UHGV virus genome: UHGV-0166592
Reading direction: 5' to 3' (one strand)
DNA length: 14,585 bases
DNA from: a virus
This document shows, in pieces, positions 5,713-14,585 of this stretch (position 1 is the first letter of the stretch; each line of letters begins with the position of its first letter). Below the pieces are notes generated by a model. The model worked only from the letters and a program-made list of their open reading frames with translations, had not been told where the DNA came from and searched no databases. Made by a program: the position numbers and the translations under genes.

Positions 5713-6147
5713 ATGTCCGGTAATATCTACACGCTGTACAAATCCCACTGTGAAAATGTTGGAAAGTATCGGGGCATTGAAATCAGTGGGGTAGTGTCAT
5801 CAGTCGAAATAAGCAAAGTGGAATCAAGGGCAACATTACTTACTCTTCTGGACCTTGTCTTACATGAGCACCGGAAGAAATTCGGTACTCCCTATAATCA
5901 GTTGAATGGGAAAAAGGCTCTGGTTCACCTTATTCTGATGAAGCATCACTGGATGCCAAAACAGATTAATGAGATGAAATTTGATGAACTTCTTCTTTCA
6001 ATTCAGGATGAACTCACACTTGATAAAATAAGCGTAACCGCCCAGAAATTTTTAGATTATCGAGACTGGAGATCACAAATTCATCACTTTGATGATTTTG
6101 ACGAAAATGAATGGGATCCTAATTTGTCTGCACAATATCTAAAGTAA
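5713..6147 (+). CDS. Hypothetical 144-aa protein; AT-rich cargo gene in reverse orientation
   Basis: 435-nt ORF in an AT-rich segment, with RBS AAAGGAAAAG before ATG 5713. A 144-codon ORF in AT-rich DNA is unlikely by chance. I recognise no family. Confidence 0.6.
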   Translation: MSGNIYTLYKSHCENVGKYRGIEISGVVSSVEISKVESRATLLTLLDLVLHEHRKKFGTPYNQLNGKKALVHLILMKHHWMPKQINEMKFDELLLSIQDELTLDKISVTAQKFLDYRDWRSQIHHFDDFDENEWDPNLSAQYLK

Positions 6148-6572: not shown

Positions 6573-7199
6573 TTAGAGTTCGTATTGAACTCCTTTGACT
6601 ACACCAATGATAAGGCAATTACCATTGATAGGGATGTTGGGATACCGAGGATTTAATGGCACTAAAAACTTTTGAGGGCCATCGATGACTAATTTTTTTA
6701 CTGTAGCTTCGTTTGTTCCATCAAGTCGAGCGATGACTATTTTTCCATGACGAGGTTCTGCATCTGGATCTACAATCACTGTTGCGCCTTCTGGTATTGT
6801 TGGGAGGCCATTAGGGTTAGTCATGGAGTCACCTTTAACCTCTAATGCAAATGAGTTATCACCAATCTTTAATGATGTATCTACCCACTTGTCCACTTCA
6901 CTAAACACTTCTGCTGCCCTGCACTCAGTAAACTGCCCAGCCTGAACCCACGATATTACAGGAACTCTGCGCATGTTTGTGACGAGTTTGCCTTCAAACT
7001 CAGCACCATAAAGAATGTAATCTATTGACGTATTGAAGAACTTCGCTAATTTCGAAAGTGCCTCCCCACCAGGGGTATTGATGTCTTTCTCCCAGTACCC
7101 CACAGCAACGTCGCTTACTCCACAAAATTTACCCAATTCTTTCTGGGACGTTCCGGTAACTCTTCTCAGAGCTTTTATACGCTGACCAACCGTTTCCAT
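6573..7199 (-). CDS. cI: CI-type prophage repressor (N-terminal XRE-family HTH, C-terminal S24 LexA-like peptidase)
   Basis: 208-aa ORF. The N-terminus (QRIKALRRVTGTSQKELGKFCGVSDVAVGYWE) is an HTH; the C-terminus has the S24 Ser/Lys dyad context (GDSMTNP ... TVKKLVIDG). It is divergent from the cro-like gene. Confidence 0.9.
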   Translation of the reverse strand: METVGQRIKALRRVTGTSQKELGKFCGVSDVAVGYWEKDINTPGGEALSKLAKFFNTSIDYILYGAEFEGKLVTNMRRVPVISWVQAGQFTECRAAEVFSEVDKWVDTSLKIGDNSFALEVKGDSMTNPNGLPTIPEGATVIVDPDAEPRHGKIVIARLDGTNEATVKKLVIDGPQKFLVPLNPRYPNIPINGNCLIIGVVKGVQYEL

Positions 7200-7497: not shown

Positions 7498-8086
7498 ATC
7501 GATTAACAGAAACCACAGAACGATGAGGCTAACCGTGGGTAAGCATCACTGGAAAGTAGAAAAACAGCCTGAGTGGTACGTGAAAGCTGTCAGAAAAACT
7601 ATCGCAGCGTTGCCGGGTGGTTACGCTGAAGCAGCTGACTGGCTGGATGTAACAGAAAACGCATTATTTAACCGCCTTCGTGCCGATGGCGATCAGATTT
7701 TCCCGCTGGGATGGGCAATGATTTTGCAACGTGCTGGTGGAACTCACTTCATTGCTGACGCTGTGGCGCAGTCTGCAAATGGCGTCTTTGTGTCTCTTCC
7801 TGACGTCGAGGATGTGGACAACGCCGATATTAACCAGCGCCTGCTGGAAGTCATTGAACAGATTGGCAGTTATTCCAGACAGATTCGTTCGGCAATCGAA
7901 GACGGTGTGGTGGAACCGCATGAGAAGACAGCAATTAACGACGAGCTGTATCTCTCAATTTCGAAGCTGCAGGAGCATGCAGCACTGGTCTACAAAATCT
8001 TTTGCGTTTCAGAAAGTAGTGACGCCCGCGAGTGTGCAGCTCCGGGCGCCGTGGCGTGTCGTGACTGTGGAGAAACTAACGCATGA
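7478..8086 (+). CDS. CII-like / YdaT-family early regulator (start uncertain)
   Basis: The ORF immediately follows and overlaps cro. Possible starts are 7421, 7478 and 7490; none has a strong RBS. Its position after cro and its size fit the phage CII/YdaT-type regulators as I recall them. Confidence 0.5.
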
Positions 8087-8421
8087 ACAGTTTAACAACA
8101 CACTACCGTCGCTCGCAACTGATTGCGCTTCCTGTACCGGGTGGAAAAGCGAAGGTGGAGTATTGCTATGCAGTTAATGTACCAGGTGACAGGGAAATTG
8201 TAACCCACAGCTTTGCTGAGTGGGCTGTGGGTGATTTCAACCGGCAGAAGGAGACAGTCCTTTGCGACAAGTTAACCGCTGGTTCAAAGATCACTACGGA
8301 GTGCCCGTCAGAGTCATTCGTTGGGAGCCGGAAACACAACGAGTTATCTACCTCCGCGAAGGCTATGAGCATGAGTGCTTCAGCCCGCTCGAACAGTTTC
8401 GTCGTAAATTCAGGGAAATAG
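8083..8421 (+). CDS. Hypothetical protein, frame 1 (overlaps a better-looking alternative frame in its 3' half)
   Basis: ATG 8083 overlaps the upstream stop (ATGA), with GGAG 10 nt upstream. The C-terminal third translates to low-complexity S/A-rich sequence, suggesting that part is not the genuine frame. Confidence 0.3.
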
Positions 8422-8441
8422 AGGTCGGTCATGAGCACTAA
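8262..8441 (+). CDS. Candidate small protein, DUF4222-like, non-ATG (TTG) start
   Basis: The frame-3 translation [58 protein letters not shown] looks protein-like. There is no in-frame ATG; TTG 8262 lies 8 nt after a strong RBS AAGGAGA (8248..8254). It ends TAA 8439..8441, overlapping the replication gene start. Confidence 0.3.
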
Positions 8442-9372
8442 ATTAACCGGCTATGTATGGGATGGTTGCGCTGCATCAGGCATGAAATTATCCAGCGTGG
8501 CAATTATGGCCCGCCTGGCTGATTTCAGTAATGACGAAGGTGTGTGCTGGCCATCAATTGAAACCATTGCCCGCCAGATTGGCGCGGGGATGAGTACCGT
8601 CAGAACGGCTATCGCACGGCTGGAAGCAGAAGGCTGGTTAACGCGTAAGGCGCGTCGCCAGGGTAACCGCAATGCGTCGAATGTTTATCAGCTTAACGTT
8701 GCGAAGCTTCAGGCAGCGGCATTTTCTCAACTGTCAGATTCTGACCCGTCAAAATCTGACGCATCAAAATCTGACCCGTCAAAATTTGATGCGTCGAAAT
8801 CTGGCAAAAAAGCGGGTTTTCACCCGTCAGAATCTGGTGGGGATCCGTCAGTAAAATCAAAACATGATCCGTCAGATAAAAAAACTTCTCGTCCGGACGC
8901 TTCGCAACCGGACACGCAGACGGCTGAACAGGATTTTTTAACTCGCCATCCTGATGCGGTTGTATTCAGCCCTAAAAAGCGCCAGTGGGGGACGCAGGAT
9001 GATTTGACCTGCGCACAGTGGCTCTGGAAAAAAATCATCGCCCTGTACGAGCATGCCGCCGAATGTGACGGCGAGGTGGTTCGTCCCAAAGAACCGAACT
9101 GGACAGCCTGGGCAAACGAAATTCGCCTGATGTGTGTGCAGGATGGTCGTACTCATAAACAAATCTGCGAGATGTACAGCCGCGTCAGTCGCGATCCGTT
9201 CTGGTGCCGTAACGTGCTCAGCCCGTCGAAGCTGCGGGAAAAATGGGATGAGCTTTCCCTGCGCTTATCGCCGTCCATCAGCACATACACAGAAAAACGC
9301 GAAGACCCGTATTTCAAATCCAGTTACGACAACGTGGACTACAGCCAGATCCCGGCAGGATTCAGGGGGTGA
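8431..9372 (+). CDS. Replication initiation protein (N-terminal winged HTH, C-terminal DnaT-like domain)
   Basis: 313-aa ORF with RBS GAGG 6 nt before ATG 8431. The N-terminus (VAIMARLADFSNDEGVCWPSIETIARQIGAGMSTVRTAIARLEAEGWL) is the wHTH of phage initiators; the C-terminus (TCAQWLWKKIIALYEHAAE...) resembles DnaT-type domains. The central linker is encoded by iteron-like repeats. Confidence 0.8.
   Translation: MSTKLTGYVWDGCAASGMKLSSVAIMARLADFSNDEGVCWPSIETIARQIGAGMSTVRTAIARLEAEGWLTRKARRQGNRNASNVYQLNVAKLQAAAFSQLSDSDPSKSDASKSDPSKFDASKSGKKAGFHPSESGGDPSVKSKHDPSDKKTSRPDASQPDTQTAEQDFLTRHPDAVVFSPKKRQWGTQDDLTCAQWLWKKIIALYEHAAECDGEVVRPKEPNWTAWANEIRLMCVQDGRTHKQICEMYSRVSRDPFWCRNVLSPSKLREKWDELSLRLSPSISTYTEKREDPYFKSSYDNVDYSQIPAGFRG
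8731..8885 (+). repeat. Iteron-like 15-bp repeats inside the replication gene; candidate origin
   Basis: Five tandem 15-bp units at 8731..8805 (e.g. CCGTCAAAATCTGAC, GCATCAAAATCTGAC, CCGTCAAAATTTGAT), then three spaced copies at 8824, 8845 and 8869, followed by an A-rich tract. Confidence 0.6.
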
Positions 9373-9374
9373 GC

Positions 9375-9863
9375 ATGAGTCTTTTGAATGAAGTTCAGAA
9401 ATTCATTGAAGCCCATCCGGGGTGTACTTCCGGAGACATTGCGGATGCTTTTGCAGGTTACTCACGACAGCGCGTTCTGCAGTCAGCAAGCAAGTTACGT
9501 CAGAGTGGGCGTGTGGCTCACCGTTGTGAAGGGGATACACGCAGACATTTCCCGCGCCTGACTGAGAGAGCGCAGGAGCCGGAACCACAACCAGTTCGTG
9601 AAACCAGACCTGTGCGCAATTTCTATGTCGGCACTAACGATCCACGGGTGATTTTGTGCCTGACCCGCCAGGCTGAAGAACTGGAGTCCAGGGGCCTATA
9701 CCGTCGTGCTGCAACGGTGTGGATGGCGGCATTCCGTGAAAGCCACTCCCAGCCAGAACGAAACAATTTTCTGGCGCGTCGTGAGCAGTGCTTACAGAAA
9801 AGCAGCAAGCGCGCTGCATCGGGTGAAGAGTGGTATCTGTCAGGGAATTACGTGGGGGCTTAA
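9375..9863 (+). CDS. PerC-like transcriptional regulator
   Basis: Start placed at ATG 9375 (GTG 9369 is possible). The segment AEELESRGLYRRAATVWMAAFRESHSQPERNNFLARREQCL resembles the PerC/Pch motif as I recall it. Its stop overlaps the next start as TAATG. Confidence 0.5.
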   Translation: MSLLNEVQKFIEAHPGCTSGDIADAFAGYSRQRVLQSASKLRQSGRVAHRCEGDTRRHFPRLTERAQEPEPQPVRETRPVRNFYVGTNDPRVILCLTRQAEELESRGLYRRAATVWMAAFRESHSQPERNNFLARREQCLQKSSKRAASGEEWYLSGNYVGA

Positions 9864-10516
9864 TGAGTAATAAATATTGCCAGGCGCTGGTGGAACTGCG
9901 GAACAAACCAGCCCATGAACTGAAGGAAGTGGGCGATCAGTGGCGCACGCCGGACAACATTTTCTGGGGAATTAACACCCTGTTTGGCCCGTTTGTTCTG
10001 GATCTGTTCACTGACGGTGATAACGCCAAATGTGCTGCGTATTACACGGCGGAAGACAACGCGCTGGCGCATGACTGGTCAGAACGTCTTGCGGAGCTAA
10101 AAGGTGCTGCCTTTGGTAATCCCCCATACAGCCGCGCCAGTCAGCATGAGGGGCAATACATCACCGGCATGCGTTACATCATGAAACATGCCAGTGCCAT
10201 GCGTGATAAGGGCGGGCGCTATGTTTTCCTGATCAAAGCTGCCACCAGCGAAGTGTGGTGGCCGGAAGATGCAGATCATATTGCTTTTATTCGCGGGCGT
10301 ATTGGTTTTGAACTGCCTGCCTGGTTTATCCCGAAGGATGAGAAGCAGGTGCCGACAGGCGCTTTCTTCGCTGGTGCTATTGCTGTTTTCGACAAGACCT
10401 GGAAGGGACCGGCAATCAGCTACATCGGGCGCGATGAACTTGAGGCATGTGGTGAGGCGTTTCTGGAGCAGGTTCGTCAGCAGGCGGAAAAACTGGTCAG
10501 GGAGATGGCGGCATGA
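9863..10516 (+). CDS. Phage Dam-type DNA N6-adenine methyltransferase
   Basis: Start at ATG 9863 (MSNKYCQALVELRNK...). Contains the catalytic NPPY motif (AFGNPPYSR) and an upstream WRTPD segment typical of phage Dam-family enzymes. Confidence 0.85.
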   Translation: MSNKYCQALVELRNKPAHELKEVGDQWRTPDNIFWGINTLFGPFVLDLFTDGDNAKCAAYYTAEDNALAHDWSERLAELKGAAFGNPPYSRASQHEGQYITGMRYIMKHASAMRDKGGRYVFLIKAATSEVWWPEDADHIAFIRGRIGFELPAWFIPKDEKQVPTGAFFAGAIAVFDKTWKGPAISYIGRDELEACGEAFLEQVRQQAEKLVREMAA

Positions 10517-10839
10517 CGACGTTAACTCAATGCCAGCAGCAGGTGCTGGATATGCTGATTTCTTATCAGAAAGAACGTGGTTTCCCGCCAACCAATCAGG
10601 AGGTGGCAACCATGCTGGGATACCGTTCGGTGAATGCAGCGGTGGAGCATCTTCGTGCGCTGGAGAAAAAAGGCGTCATCACGATAAAGCGTGGCGTGGC
10701 CCGGGGGATAACGCTTCATACCGCGGTGAAGGACGACGACAGCGAGGCGGTCGGGATTATCCGCTCACTGCTTGCCGGTGAGGAAAACGCCAGGCTGCGT
10801 GCAGCCCACTGGTTACATGAGAGGGGCCTGAAAGTATGA
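10513..10839 (+). CDS. LexA N-terminal-like winged-helix DNA-binding protein
   Basis: 108-aa ORF; QQQVLDMLISYQKERGFPPTNQEVATMLGYRSVNAAVEHLRALEKKGVI resembles the LexA DNA-binding domain, with no peptidase domain. ATGA overlap with the Dam stop. Confidence 0.6.
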   Translation: MTTLTQCQQQVLDMLISYQKERGFPPTNQEVATMLGYRSVNAAVEHLRALEKKGVITIKRGVARGITLHTAVKDDDSEAVGIIRSLLAGEENARLRAAHWLHERGLKV

Positions 10840-11225
10840 AGCTGATTCTGCCTTTTCCGCCCAGCGTGAACACGTACTGGCGACACCCCAACAAAGGGGC
10901 GTTTGCTGGTAAGAGCCTGATAAGCGCGGCGGGGCGAAAATTCCAGAGTGCGGCGTGCGCAGCAATAGTTGAGCAGTTACGTCGTCTGCCGAAACCAACG
11001 TCGGCACCTGCTTCAGTGGAGATCGTGTTGTTTCCTCCGGATAACCGGATCCGCGATCTGGACAACTATAACAAGGCGCTGTTTGACGCCCTGACCCACG
11101 CGGGTGTGTGGGAAGACGACAGCCAGGTGAAAAGAATGCTGGTGGAGTGGGGACCGGTTATCCCGGAAGGGAAGGTCGAGATCACTATCAGTAAGTACGA
11201 GAAAACGGCGGGTGCAGCCGCCTGA
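10836..11225 (+). CDS. rusA: Holliday junction resolvase RusA
   Basis: 129-aa ORF; the N-terminal LPFPPSVNTYWRH and the Asp-rich region (IRDLDNYNKALFDALTHAGVWEDDSQV) fit RusA. ATGA overlap with the upstream gene. Confidence 0.85.
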   Translation: MKLILPFPPSVNTYWRHPNKGAFAGKSLISAAGRKFQSAACAAIVEQLRRLPKPTSAPASVEIVLFPPDNRIRDLDNYNKALFDALTHAGVWEDDSQVKRMLVEWGPVIPEGKVEITISKYEKTAGAAA

Positions 11226-11244
11226 TCAAGAGGAGAAACGAAGT

Positions 11245-12087
11245 ATGAATAATCTGATGGTCATTGATGGTATTGAAGTTCGTCGTGATGCTTATGGGCG
11301 TTACAGCCTGAACGATCTGCATCGGGCTGCTGTTGCATCTGGTGCAAATGCCAGAACTAAGGAGCCGGGAAAGTTTCTTTCCAGCCAACAGATTACTGAG
11401 CTGGTTCAGGAATTGATCGATACCCAAAATTTGGGTGTCGGTTCATTCAATGAAACTACCCAAAATTTGGGTAGTAAACCAGTAAGTAAAATAGAAGGGC
11501 GGAATGGAGGAACGTATGTCTGCAAGGAACTGGTGTATGCCTATGCAATGTGGATCAGCCCGTCATTCCATCTGAAGGTGATCCGTACTTTCGATATGGT
11601 AACCAGCGCACCGGAAAAATTATCCGGGCAGGCTGCTGACAAGATGCAGGCTGGAGTGATTCTGCTGGACTTTATGCGCAGGGAGTTAAACCTGTCTAAC
11701 TCTTCAGTGCTTGGGGCCTGTCAGAAACTCCAGGAGGCTGTTGGCTTACCGAATCTGGCACCGCGCTATGCCATTGATGCTCCTGCTGACGCGCCTGATG
11801 GCTCAAGCCGCCCCACGCTGTCACTGAGTGCATTGCTGAAGCAGTATGGTATCCGCCTGACAGCTAATCAGGCATATCACCAGATGGTGAAGCTGGGGAT
11901 CGTCGAGCAGCGCGAACGATACAGCCGTACCGCGATTAACAACATCAAAAAATTCTGGTCGCTGACGGCGAAAGGCTGCATGTTCGGCAAGAACATCACC
12001 AGTCCTGCAAATCCGCGCGAGACGCAGCCGCATTTCTTCGAATCCCGATTCCCTGAGCTGTTAAAGCTGCTCGATACCGTACATTGA
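11245..12087 (+). CDS. KilA-N domain protein (antirepressor-like)
   Basis: Start at ATG 11245 with RBS AGGAG 9 nt upstream. The N-terminal region (YSLNDLHRAA ... KELVYAYAMWISPSFHLKVIR) is KilA-N-like. Confidence 0.75.
   Translation: MNNLMVIDGIEVRRDAYGRYSLNDLHRAAVASGANARTKEPGKFLSSQQITELVQELIDTQNLGVGSFNETTQNLGSKPVSKIEGRNGGTYVCKELVYAYAMWISPSFHLKVIRTFDMVTSAPEKLSGQAADKMQAGVILLDFMRRELNLSNSSVLGACQKLQEAVGLPNLAPRYAIDAPADAPDGSSRPTLSLSALLKQYGIRLTANQAYHQMVKLGIVEQRERYSRTAINNIKKFWSLTAKGCMFGKNITSPANPRETQPHFFESRFPELLKLLDTVH
11421..11473. repeat. Two copies of the 16-bp near-palindrome TACCCAAAATTTGGGT inside the KilA-N gene
   Basis: Exact copies at 11421..11436 and 11457..11472, 36 bp apart. Each has half-sites ACCCAAA / TTTGGGT. 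Confidence 0.7.
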
Positions 12088-13097: not shown

Positions 13098-13850
13098 ATG
13101 AACCTTGAAGCCTTACCAAAATATTACTCCCCAAAATCTCCAAAATTGAGCGATGACGCACCGGCGACAGGCTCAGGTGGTTTAACGATTACGGATGTGA
13201 TGGCTGCGCAGGGGATGGTGCAGTCGAAAGCACCGCTTGGGTTTGCCTTATTCCTGGCAAAAGTTGGTGTTCAGGATCCTCAGTTTGCGATTGAAGGTCT
13301 GCTCAATTACGCGATGGCAATGGATAACCCGACATTGAACAAATTGAGTGAAGAAACCCGGTTACAGATCATCCCTTACCTTGTGAGTTTTGCCTTTGCT
13401 GATTATTCCAGGTCTGCGGCAAGTAAGGCTCGCTGTGAGCATTGTGCTGGTACTGGATTTCATAGTGTATTGCGCGAAGTGGTGAAACACTCCAGAAGCG
13501 GGGAATCTGTTATCAAGGAAGAGTGGGTGAAGGAATTATGTCAGCATTGCCATGGTAAGGGAGAAGTCAGCACGGCTTGCAGAGGGTGTAAGGGTAAAGG
13601 CATTGTCCTGGATGAAAAAAGAACCCGGCTTCATGGCGCGCCTGTTTATAAGATTTGTGGGCGTTGCAATGGAAACCGGTTTAGTCGTTTACCGACCACA
13701 CTGGCACGACGTCATGTCCAGAAGCTGGTACCAGACCTGACTGATTATCAGTGGTACAAAGGATATGCAGACGTCATTGATAAACTGGTAACAAAGTGCT
13801 GGCAGGAAGAAGCATTCGCTGAAGCACAATTGAGAAAGGTGACGAGATAA
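13098..13850 (+). CDS. Late-gene antitermination protein Q
   Basis: 250-aa ORF with RBS GGAG before ATG 13098. The N-terminus MNLEALPKYYSPKSPKLSDDAPATGSGGLTITDVMAAQGMVQSKAPLGFALF matches lambdoid Q proteins as I recall them; Cys-rich zinc-binding region CEHCAGTG ... CQHCHGKG ... CRGCKGKG. Confidence 0.85.
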   Translation: MNLEALPKYYSPKSPKLSDDAPATGSGGLTITDVMAAQGMVQSKAPLGFALFLAKVGVQDPQFAIEGLLNYAMAMDNPTLNKLSEETRLQIIPYLVSFAFADYSRSAASKARCEHCAGTGFHSVLREVVKHSRSGESVIKEEWVKELCQHCHGKGEVSTACRGCKGKGIVLDEKRTRLHGAPVYKICGRCNGNRFSRLPTTLARRHVQKLVPDLTDYQWYKGYADVIDKLVTKCWQEEAFAEAQLRKVTR

Positions 13851-13881: not shown

Positions 13882-13910
13882 TTGCATTTCTCAAAAAATA
13901 TGGATAAGAT
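13882..13910 (+). promoter_or_regulatory. Candidate pR'-like late promoter
   Basis: -35-like TTGCAT (13882..13887), 17-nt spacer, -10-like TAAGAT (13905..13910), about 30 bp after the Q stop. The match to consensus is weak; assignment rests mainly on position. Confidence 0.3.
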
Positions 13911-13955
13911 TTTCCCAACGATGGGCTTTGTATGTCTACCGTTGATGAGTCCAAG

Positions 13956-13990
13956 AACCCGCCGCCGAGCGGGTTAAATTATTTTTTCTT
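13956..13990 (+). terminator. Candidate tR'-like intrinsic terminator
   Basis: 7-bp stem AACCCGC / GCGGGTT (13956..13962 and 13969..13975), 6-nt loop, then AAATTATTTTTTCTT. It lies about 70 nt after the candidate pR'. Confidence 0.5.
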
Positions 13991-14004
13991 ACACGGGGAT
14001 ATGG

Positions 14005-14535
14005 ATGTTATACCGAGATCTTTTGCCTATTTTCTCAGAAAGACCCATATTTAAAGCTCCTGAGGCTGAAAGAATACTTCGTGAGCAATATTCTATCGCC
14101 GCCCCCACTCCTGTAATTCAGGAGATTTATTATGGATTGGCAGGTTATGACAGATTTCAGGAGCTTTATGGGGATCTTAATATTGACCAAATCGAATGGA
14201 AATTGATTGAACTTCCCACTAAAAATTTTTTAACTATCGGGGATAATGCTACTTACCCTGATTTTTTGCATGAGGTCGTTGAAGATTTCACAACCCGTAA
14301 AGGCGATGTATTTATGGATGATGAAATAAAAGCGCATTGGTGTAATTTTGGCACATGGTGTGAACCTCCATTTTTTATAGATCGAGCTTTGCTGAAAAGT
14401 AATACAACAGGGCTTCATTTAATGGAAGGGCATACAAGAGTTGGAACCCTGTTAGGGGCAGTTAAGTATAACTTCGTTAAGCTTGCTAATACTCATAAAA
14501 TTTATTATGCGCAAGCAAAAGAATGTATTAAATAA
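14005..14535 (+). CDS. Hypothetical 176-aa protein; AT-rich cargo gene downstream of Q/tR'
   Basis: ORF with RBS GGGGA 5 nt before ATG 14005 and TAA at 14533..14535. It is markedly more AT-rich than the flanking phage genes. I recognise no family. Confidence 0.65.
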   Translation: MLYRDLLPIFSERPIFKAPEAERILREQYSIAAPTPVIQEIYYGLAGYDRFQELYGDLNIDQIEWKLIELPTKNFLTIGDNATYPDFLHEVVEDFTTRKGDVFMDDEIKAHWCNFGTWCEPPFFIDRALLKSNTTGLHLMEGHTRVGTLLGAVKYNFVKLANTHKIYYAQAKECIK

Positions 14536-14585
14536 GTTGAGTGAAATTACTGTTTTTTTTTAACAATACTTACCGCGTTCTCGCG

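Follow-up and report, generated by a model that had tools for sequence, protein, structure and literature searches.

Organization of the locus downstream of Q

The sequence analysed in this study (the window) is a 14,585-nucleotide (nt) stretch of the virus genome UHGV-0166592, filled by the left two-thirds of a lambdoid Escherichia coli prophage integrated at argU. Close to its right end lies an open reading frame (ORF) of 176 amino acids (aa), here designated ORF176, whose neighbours are the gene of the antiterminator Q on one side and a 64-aa ORF (a homologue of orf47) on the other; the lysis genes are located ~2.7 kb farther downstream. A preliminary description of the sequence had placed this ORF 15 nt past the T-run of a candidate tR' hairpin and directly downstream of Q, which agrees with our analysis: a T6 run occupies positions 13984-13989, separated from the stem by AAATTA, and the ORF starts at 14005. 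The locus contains the following features:

13098..13850, + strand: Q antiterminator gene, 250 aa, QuuQ/SfV-Q type (PF03589, E 1.7e-53; phrog_127, E 6e-108)
13882..13925, + strand: candidate late promoter pR', lambda-like layout
13956..13975, + strand: tR' stem-loop, the ancestral terminator (AACCCGC-CGCCGA-GCGGGTT; terminator scan, -11.7 kcal/mol)
13976..13989, + strand: left junction of the insertion, with the T-tract displaced and interrupted (AAATTATTTTTT)
13976..14585, + strand: inserted cassette of ~633 bp, which continues ~25 bp beyond the window end
13995..13999, + strand: Shine-Dalgarno (SD) sequence GGGGA, 5 nt ahead of the ATG, read from the sequence
14005..14535, + strand: ORF176, 176 aa, ATG start, PHROG 8867
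14573..14585, + strand: the cassette's own terminator, CCGCG-TTCT-CGCGG followed by T7 (CCGCGTTCTCGCGG-T7), cut by the window end

In identical E. coli loci, the copies of Q are annotated as "antitermination protein".

ORF176 is carried by an inserted cassette

The segment 13852-13975 of the window shares 92-94% identity with the Q-proximal intergenic region of phages SfV, mEp460 and Ayreon, and of fifteen Stx2c (Shiga toxin)-converting phages. In the alignment with SfV, the homology ends directly after the tR' stem and picks up ~633 bp later at GCAGTACGG, just ahead of the 64-aa orf47 homologue and a PF01555 DNA methyltransferase gene. Comparison of the Q-to-lysis intervals of these related phages revealed three states of the slot between tR' and orf47:

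SfV: empty
mEp460 and the Stx2c phages: an unrelated gene of 138-141 aa, phrog_4748 (unknown function), flanked by two copies of the tR' hairpin
the prophage of the window: the ORF176 cassette

Because SfV has nothing in this slot and mEp460 and the Stx2c phages have another gene there, ORF176 can be classed as an AT-rich cassette of the indel type that was acquired separately and occupies the classical cargo position between Q and the lysis genes; the cargo position and separate acquisition proposed in the preliminary description are thus borne out. These comparisons show that the pR' leader harbours a real and mobile cargo gene, ORF176. The Q-pR'-tR' module was found in 694 of 5426 complete E. 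coli genomes, phrog_4748 in 215 and ORF176 in 90. In the Stx2c phages, the methyltransferase gene and stxA/stxB are located downstream of phrog_4748.

The two hairpins bracketing phrog_4748 (mEp460, locus L018, 2600-3330; Stx2c phage, locus L017, 4600-5330) are near-identical and each is followed by a T-tract, which suggests that recombination at this hot spot targets the terminator sequence itself.

The AT-richness noted earlier was also evident. At 0.369 (0.282 at third codon positions), the G+C content of ORF176 is below that of the window as a whole (0.489) and of its neighbouring genes (0.478-0.569). Of all 531-bp windows, only 0.3% are equally AT-rich and each of them overlaps ORF176, which is therefore the most AT-rich stretch of the sequence.

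In the 90 E. coli genomes (1.7%), which include strains of extraintestinal and avian pathogenic E. coli (ExPEC/APEC), e.g. IHE3034 and 789, ORF176 is full-length, single-copy, always chromosomal and always annotated as hypothetical. A second allele (8 genomes; 95.9% nt identity) differs by 22 nt and 11 aa, with a ratio of nonsynonymous to synonymous substitution rates (dN/dS) of 0.33. All 11 aa substitutions fall within residues 14-96, which leaves the last 80 residues unchanged. To judge from the sequences, this pattern fits a constrained ParB/sulfiredoxin (ParB/Srx)-like domain preceded by a more plastic N-terminal domain. The conserved N-terminus (MLYRDL is kept in homologues), the dN/dS value, the 286 homologous clusters and a confident AlphaFold model (pLDDT 94), described below, establish that ORF176 is a real gene and more than a chance ORF; nothing was found that speaks against its translation.

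A terminator-like hairpin (CTCCTG-TAATT-CAGGAG, followed by ATTTATTATG) is also present inside ORF176 (14108-14124, + strand). It is probably due to chance, as 0.9 such sites are expected and the scan returned 2.

Late promoter and terminators

The candidate pR' consists of a -35 box TTGCAT (13882-13887), a 17-nt spacer, a -10 box TAAGAT (13905-13910), TTTCCC and AACGATGGG (13917-13925). The pR' of lambda (TTGACT, 17 nt, TAAATT, TGACTC, AACGATGGG) has equal spacing and an identical 9-mer. A consensus promoter scan called neither pR', whose -35 box matches only 3/6 positions, nor any other + strand promoter ahead of ORF176; from the layout we infer that the segment functions as a promoter. According to work of the Roberts laboratory on sigma70-dependent promoter-proximal pausing in lambda, AACGAT at +1 to +6 is reportedly a -10-like pause element at which Q engages RNA polymerase. 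Position 13917 is the likely start site of pR', and AACGATGGG is likely to be a sigma70 pause element as well. No RNA family was identified across the region in an Rfam scan.

The hairpin at 13956-13975 is homologous to the terminator annotated in the SfV and Ayreon records. The proximal tail after its stem is TTAAATTA, compared with TTTTTTTG in SfV. The T-tails of the relevant terminators were scored as follows:

tR' of SfV, mEp460 and the Stx2c phages: tail TTTTTTTG, score ~5.0
tR' stem of the window: tail TTAAATTATTTTTT, score 2.37
cassette terminator: T7, score 5.05

The cassette terminator is complete in the identical E. coli locus L001 (9724-9744). The old tR' stem is mutated further in the second E. 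coli allele (-6.8 vs -11.7 kcal/mol), and the Salmonella copy has a degenerate hairpin upstream and a terminator downstream.

ORF176 starts at about +89 of the predicted transcript. The gap between the tR' stem and the ATG is only 29 nt, which leaves no room for a promoter of its own, so the gene would have to be read from pR'. Coupling of its expression to Q is plausible in view of the lambda pR' layout upstream. As the U-tract of the old tR' has been lost and a new terminator follows the gene, expression may also be partly Q-independent: the effective tR' would now lie at the 3' side of ORF176, with the gene inside the Q-independent leader transcript. Whether uninduced lysogens of this E. 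coli prophage produce some ORF176 is finely poised, and we put it forward tentatively.

Predicted fold and motifs of the ORF176 protein

ORF176 encodes an acidic protein of 20.5 kDa (isoelectric point 5.4), predicted to be soluble, with neither a signal peptide nor a transmembrane segment (maximum KD19 0.55). It had been described as belonging to no placeable family. This holds for Pfam, NCBIfam and PDB, none of which gave a match to the protein; it falls into PHROG 8867, and a divergent ParB/Srx fold is predicted. The following parts were distinguished:

14005..14175, + strand: N-terminal helical domain, residues ~1-57, four helices
14182..14532, + strand: predicted divergent ParB/Srx-like domain, residues ~60-176
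14320..14382, + strand: Box I-like element (helix 106-115, loop GTWCEPP, strand FFID)
14425..14439, + strand: EGHTR motif, putative counterpart of the Box II GxxR (phosphate-binding P motif)

The AlphaFold 2 model (predicted local distance difference test, pLDDT, 94.1; predicted template modelling score, pTM, 0.89) shows the order strand 63-71, helix 106-115, loop GTWCEPP, strand 123-126, strand 137-141, helix 143-155 and strand 163-171, which fits a ParB/Srx core. A structure comparison against 48,164 chains yielded the following matches to this model, with ~75 residues aligned in each and individually modest scores:

PadC ParB-like domain (6ryk), 5.6
pNOB8 ParB-N (5k5d), 5.1
sulfiredoxin, 4.1 and 3.8
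SbnI, 4.0
KorB, 3.6
serine kinase SerK, 3.6
BrxU DUF262, 3.3
Osa, 3.2
Atu1540, 2.8

Ten members of the ParB/Srx superfamily are thus found within the first fifty chains, which is not a chance pattern. A Foldseek search against PDB gave nothing significant; its best (non-significant) match was sulfiredoxin.

In an alignment of 95 sequences, nine positions are invariant (Y55, W112, W118, E141, G142, H143, T144, R145 and L149), and T117 and P122 are kept in at least 90%. Five of the invariant residues constitute the EGHTR motif, located at the turn from strand 137-141 to helix 143-155, a position that holds GERR in ParB, GCHR in sulfiredoxin, GHGR in phage ParB_N and DGQQR in DUF262. Using hhalign, EGHTR was aligned onto AGERR of canonical ParB (P 0.057) and, in the same register, onto AGHGR of a phage ParB_N profile built from a real PF02195 gene of an Enterobacter prophage (P 0.006); these P-values are those of single comparisons, and the accompanying probabilities are low (1-6%). 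In the alignment with canonical ParB (P 0.057), helix 106-115 and its loop are set on Box I (SIxxxGxLQPxxV), without similarity at the residue level. This evidence is consistent with ParB/Srx membership and supports it, short of proof.

Sequence and profile searches were otherwise empty: ORF176 and profiles of 16, 88 and 95 sequences matched nothing in Pfam, NCBIfam, PADLOC and the PDB sequences besides PHROG 8867, and a few relatives gave weak, sub-threshold matches to CUE and DUF1281. Features of canonical ParB partition proteins are lacking, as the 176-aa protein has neither a helix-turn-helix (HTH) nor a dimerisation domain and no parA or parS is located next door.

The strongest competing view is that the resemblance to ParB/Srx is coincidental and that the protein has an unrelated or new fold, e.g. 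that of an immunity or adaptor protein working without a nucleotide. We regard this as unlikely, since two independent models of the protein gave top structural matches in the same small superfamily, and three independent alignments put the invariant motif exactly on GxxR at the strand-to-helix turn. On these models, the C-terminal domain of ORF176 quite probably has a ParB/Srx-type fold, as a very divergent branch, and the protein may well bind a nucleoside triphosphate (NTP) through EGHTR.

Distribution of ORF176 homologues

Close homologues (47-59% identity) were found only in Enterobacteriaceae (Hafnia, Klebsiella, Salmonella, Enterobacter, Citrobacter and Kluyvera). In each of the enterobacterial loci examined that retain Q, the homologue is the first ORF after Q, ahead of any remaining lysis cassette. 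This position holds across two unrelated Q families (PF03589 in the window, PF06323 elsewhere) and differing holins, and all enterobacterial copies are AT-rich against their flanks. Intact copies also occur in damaged elements: (i) a prophage remnant (locus L022) carries a 59%-identical copy with a promoter-like leader, Q having been lost, and (ii) the Salmonella copy, whose cluster comprises 132 member sequences, lies in a degraded prophage with broken late genes.

The Hafnia homologue (locus L006, 7900-9460) starts 35 nt past the Q stop codon, beside an unrelated 197-aa gene on the reverse strand, and is preceded by a promoter-like site (TTGTCC-17-TAAAAT). The Enterobacter prophage (locus L024), whose ORF176 homologue likewise follows Q, carries a genuine PF02195 ParB_N gene (AGHGR) and, behind it, a PF20691 (TAGT) gene just before the terminase (8003-9647); this pair may constitute a DNA-modification module.

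A profile search of 1.84 billion representatives yielded 286 clusters (50% identity) at E<=1e-3, from many phyla and including the environmental bacteria Streptomyces, Colwellia, Vibrio, Halarcobacter and Gemmataceae. The members are mostly 165-185 aa long (some ~260 aa, with an extra C-terminal helical region), and all are unannotated and contain no Pfam domains. The distant members occur as single genes in mobile or variable DNA contexts:

Colwellia element: KAP NTPase, DUF4365 and relaxase adjoining
island: type I restriction-modification system, Cap4-type nuclease and transposases
plasmid-like region: ParDE, integrase and IS110
resolvase/integrase island
Vibrio plasmid: integron-like cassette array
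Streptomyces: twenty linear plasmids

Many of the Streptomyces homologues lie near one end of their linear plasmid, within ~6-30 kb; examples are positions 6.4 kb on a plasmid of 152.7 kb and 365.5 kb on one of 371.8 kb. Candidate partner genes were considered and rejected: the ~175-aa genes that precede the homologue at two distant loci are not related to one another, nor are the 197-aa reverse-strand genes of the Hafnia and Klebsiella loci. A GNAT acetyltransferase gene adjoins the homologue in Halarcobacter (locus L003, 8633-9058), in the Vibrio plasmid (locus L028, 6604-7125) and in a Streptomyces plasmid (locus L029, 5403-5891), in the last case at a distance of 1 nt. The three GNATs are only ~19% identical mutually, so a specific partnership is not supported.

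Comparison with known systems

The predicted core topology of ORF176 (strand, candidate Box I helix-loop, strand, strand, GxxR at a helix start, strand) is shared with orphan single-domain ParB/Srx proteins (6ryk, 5k5d, sulfiredoxin and phage ParB_N with AGHGR). Further common traits are an invariant [DE]GxxR-type motif, small size, the lack of Box III, and enrichment on prophages and plasmids. Unlike these orphans, ORF176 escapes PF02195 and every other Pfam model, and has its own N-terminal helical domain, a 25-residue insert and a tryptophan-rich Box I-like element (HWxxxGTWxxPP). It also differs in having no HTH, nuclease or methyltransferase fusion, and its nucleotide binding is only predicted. 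Compared with the ParB_n NTPase domains of the DUF262/GmrS type (DGQQR) in the defence proteins GmrSD, BrxU and SspE, and with Osa of plasmid pSa, ORF176 is far smaller; it has no nuclease (HNH/DUF1524) partner domain or gene, no sequence similarity to them and no PADLOC match.

With lambdoid morons and conversion cargo (stx, phrog_4748), ORF176 shares the slot after Q-pR'-tR', indel polymorphism between collinear phages, a deviant, AT-rich composition and a terminator of its own. Unlike classical morons, it seems to lack a dedicated promoter, the hairpin being only 29 nt away. The ORF176 insertion lies inside the terminator U-tract, whereas the cargo of mEp460 and the Stx2c phages follows an intact tR' and has the second hairpin copy behind it. 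Unlike stx cargo, the product is predicted to be cytoplasmic and is no secreted toxin.

Possible role of ORF176

We favour, with about as much doubt as confidence, the explanation that ORF176 is a mobile, pR'-transcribed cargo cassette encoding a putative ParB/Srx-like NTP-binding protein with a role in mobile-element conflicts. A self-contained cassette (SD sequence, gene and terminator) would have been acquired horizontally and have landed in the pR' leader of an argU lambdoid prophage, swapping out the U-tract of the old tR' and setting a strong new terminator behind the gene. Transcripts from pR' would read across ORF176 and stop at this terminator, giving some expression in the lysogen and strong expression once Q acts. 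The product would be a cytoplasmic protein of two domains, an N-terminal helical bundle and a highly divergent ParB/sulfiredoxin-fold domain, in which the invariant EGHTR (GxxR) and the preceding helix-loop would most likely form a nucleotide-triphosphate pocket. It would act as an NTP-dependent switch or enzyme, and not as a toxin, lysis or structural protein, and its accessory function would lie in the conflicts of mobile elements with hosts, lysogen protection being likelier than counter-defence.

Two observations point to a host-side benefit: intact copies persist in Q-less or degraded prophages, and stand-alone relatives sit by defence and toxin-antitoxin genes in islands, integron-like arrays and plasmids. 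A part in mobile-element conflict of one kind or another is a real possibility, if not quite an even one; lysogen protection in particular is a tentative suggestion, and a helper function in counter-defence or DNA modification is improbable. It is doubtful, but conceivable, that ORF176 founds an unrecognised family (~300 clusters) of stand-alone ParB/Srx-fold NTP switches, acting as single-gene immunity or counter-immunity, wired here by a terminator swap into a constitutive pR' leader and made without induction.

Several observations weigh against the favoured explanation. Box III (ENxQRxDL) is absent, since ORF176 ends at residue 176 straight after the last strand, and no ParB Pfam model is matched by any of 88 + 10 relatives, even at E<=1. 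In orphan ParB-fold proteins, which are enriched on prophages and plasmids and bind CTP, ATP or GTP unpredictably, Box III is frequently missing from the set that also comprises Box I, the base-contacting helix-loop, and Box II, GxxR (PMC12704722), so its absence does not exclude the fold. ORF176 has no recognisable effector domain, no partner gene is conserved across the loci, and PADLOC-DB v2 gave 0 families at E<=1; the want of an effector domain and of a partner gene is the chief argument against a host-side benefit. Literature searches (by accession, and for ParB-like anti-defence proteins) returned nothing on the ORF176 family and no expression or phenotype reports. Finally, tR' is still intact ahead of the homologues in the Klebsiella and Enterobacter prophages, and the Hafnia homologue lies between Q and pR', upstream of the pR' leader and tR' and thus outside the late transcript, so a leaky leader is not a family-wide property.

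The intact tR' in Klebsiella and Enterobacter would also suit a strictly late, phage-serving role, in which synthesis of the protein awaits Q antitermination and the product then benefits the phage DNA, for instance as an NTP-dependent partner of the DNA methyltransferase or in anti-restriction before packaging. Such a role would accord with the constant place of the gene in five enterobacterial genera, where it follows Q and opens the late region, with the PF01555 methyltransferase gene downstream in E. coli (two genes on) and Hafnia, and with the frequent fusion of phage ParB-fold domains to N6_N4 methyltransferases (PMC12704722). However, the methyltransferase and orf47 are resident in the lineage, being present without ORF176 in SfV, mEp460 and the Stx2c phages, and no methyltransferase gene adjoins the Klebsiella, Salmonella and Enterobacter copies. 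Moreover, the gene persists in Q-less prophage remnants, and distant homologues occur outside phages. We consider a strictly late role rather unlikely.

In its position relative to Q, pR' and tR', ORF176 equals the cargo region of the Stx2c phages, and it is present in ExPEC/APEC strains such as IHE3034 and 789, as might be expected of a Stx-like lysogenic-conversion virulence factor, i.e. a toxin or host-directed effector released at lysis. The protein has neither a secretion signal nor a transmembrane segment and no similarity to toxin families, its predicted fold is of a nucleotide-binding type, and the family spans free-living bacteria (Streptomyces, Colwellia, Halarcobacter, Gemmataceae) as well as Vibrio, so a virulence-type conversion gene is very improbable. 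That ORF176 is a non-functional leftover, a decaying or untranslated ORF riding in the prophage, as its purely hypothetical annotation, its AT-rich and probably H-NS-silenced DNA and its presence in 1.7% of E. coli genomes might suggest, is hardly credible for a gene that is full-length in 90/90 genomes, has a dN/dS of 0.33, nine invariant positions over 95 sequences from many phyla, a confident AlphaFold 2 model and a good SD sequence.

ORF176 gave no match to lysis, structural or toxin families. Identity with a lysis cassette gene (holin, endolysin or spanin) was rejected on the basis of the maximum KD19 of 0.55 and the lack of a Pfam match, and identity with a Tai tail-assembly-interference system because such systems sit upstream of the packaging module and not after Q.

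Other features of the prophage

The remaining part of the window has the organization of a lambdoid prophage:

50-916, - strand: folD
1187-1263: tRNA-Arg(TCT) gene, argU, the integration site, between folD and the integrase gene
1279-2442, - strand: integrase
6573-7199, - strand: CI-like repressor

To the right of the CI-like repressor follow, in order, a CII-like regulator, a replication gene, Dam (9830-10516), RusA, KilA-N, DUF968 and Q. The argU site (50-2442) is a DLP12-type attachment site. The prophage encodes two DNA methyltransferases: the Dam-type enzyme (PF05869; 9830-10516) of the early-right operon and an N6/N4 enzyme (PF01555) in the late leader region downstream of ORF176 (10212-11273 of the identical E. 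coli locus L001). A further AT-rich ORF of 144 aa (5713-6147, + strand; local G+C content 0.37-0.42) is flanked by the early-left genes and the CI-like repressor gene. Its sole match is phrog_5286 (unknown function, E 1.5e-90), with no Pfam family, and it may be another cargo gene at a rex/sieB-like position.

Significance of the ORF176 family

The Q-to-lysis interval of lambdoid phages carries Shiga toxin and other conversion genes, and a recurrent unknown occupant of this interval is therefore worth identifying. The original observation on ORF176 is confirmed, and its interpretation is supported with three refinements, namely the terminator swap, the predicted fold and the absence of a secreted factor. 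As a moron in a known hot spot, ORF176 is of an ordinary kind, and if it has no phenotype in phage or plasmid infection, it would be one more hypothetical moron. The protein family is unstudied, and we place it, with moderate confidence, as a new divergent ParB/Srx branch.

The family is dark, unmatched in Pfam, NCBIfam and PDB, and recurs after Q in five enterobacterial genera and behind two unrelated Q families. The published survey of ParB-fold proteins was seeded with PF02195 (PMC12704722), which the ORF176 family does not match, so the family falls outside it and appears to widen the ParB/Srx NTP-binding fold beyond its limits. The arrangement in the E. coli prophage, with the U-tract of tR' lost and a new terminator behind the gene, would, if correctly read, be a simple natural case of a cargo gene capturing a constitutive phage promoter. 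Should ORF176 bind a nucleotide and influence infection by phages or plasmids, a minimal, single-gene member would be added to the ParB-fold conflict systems.
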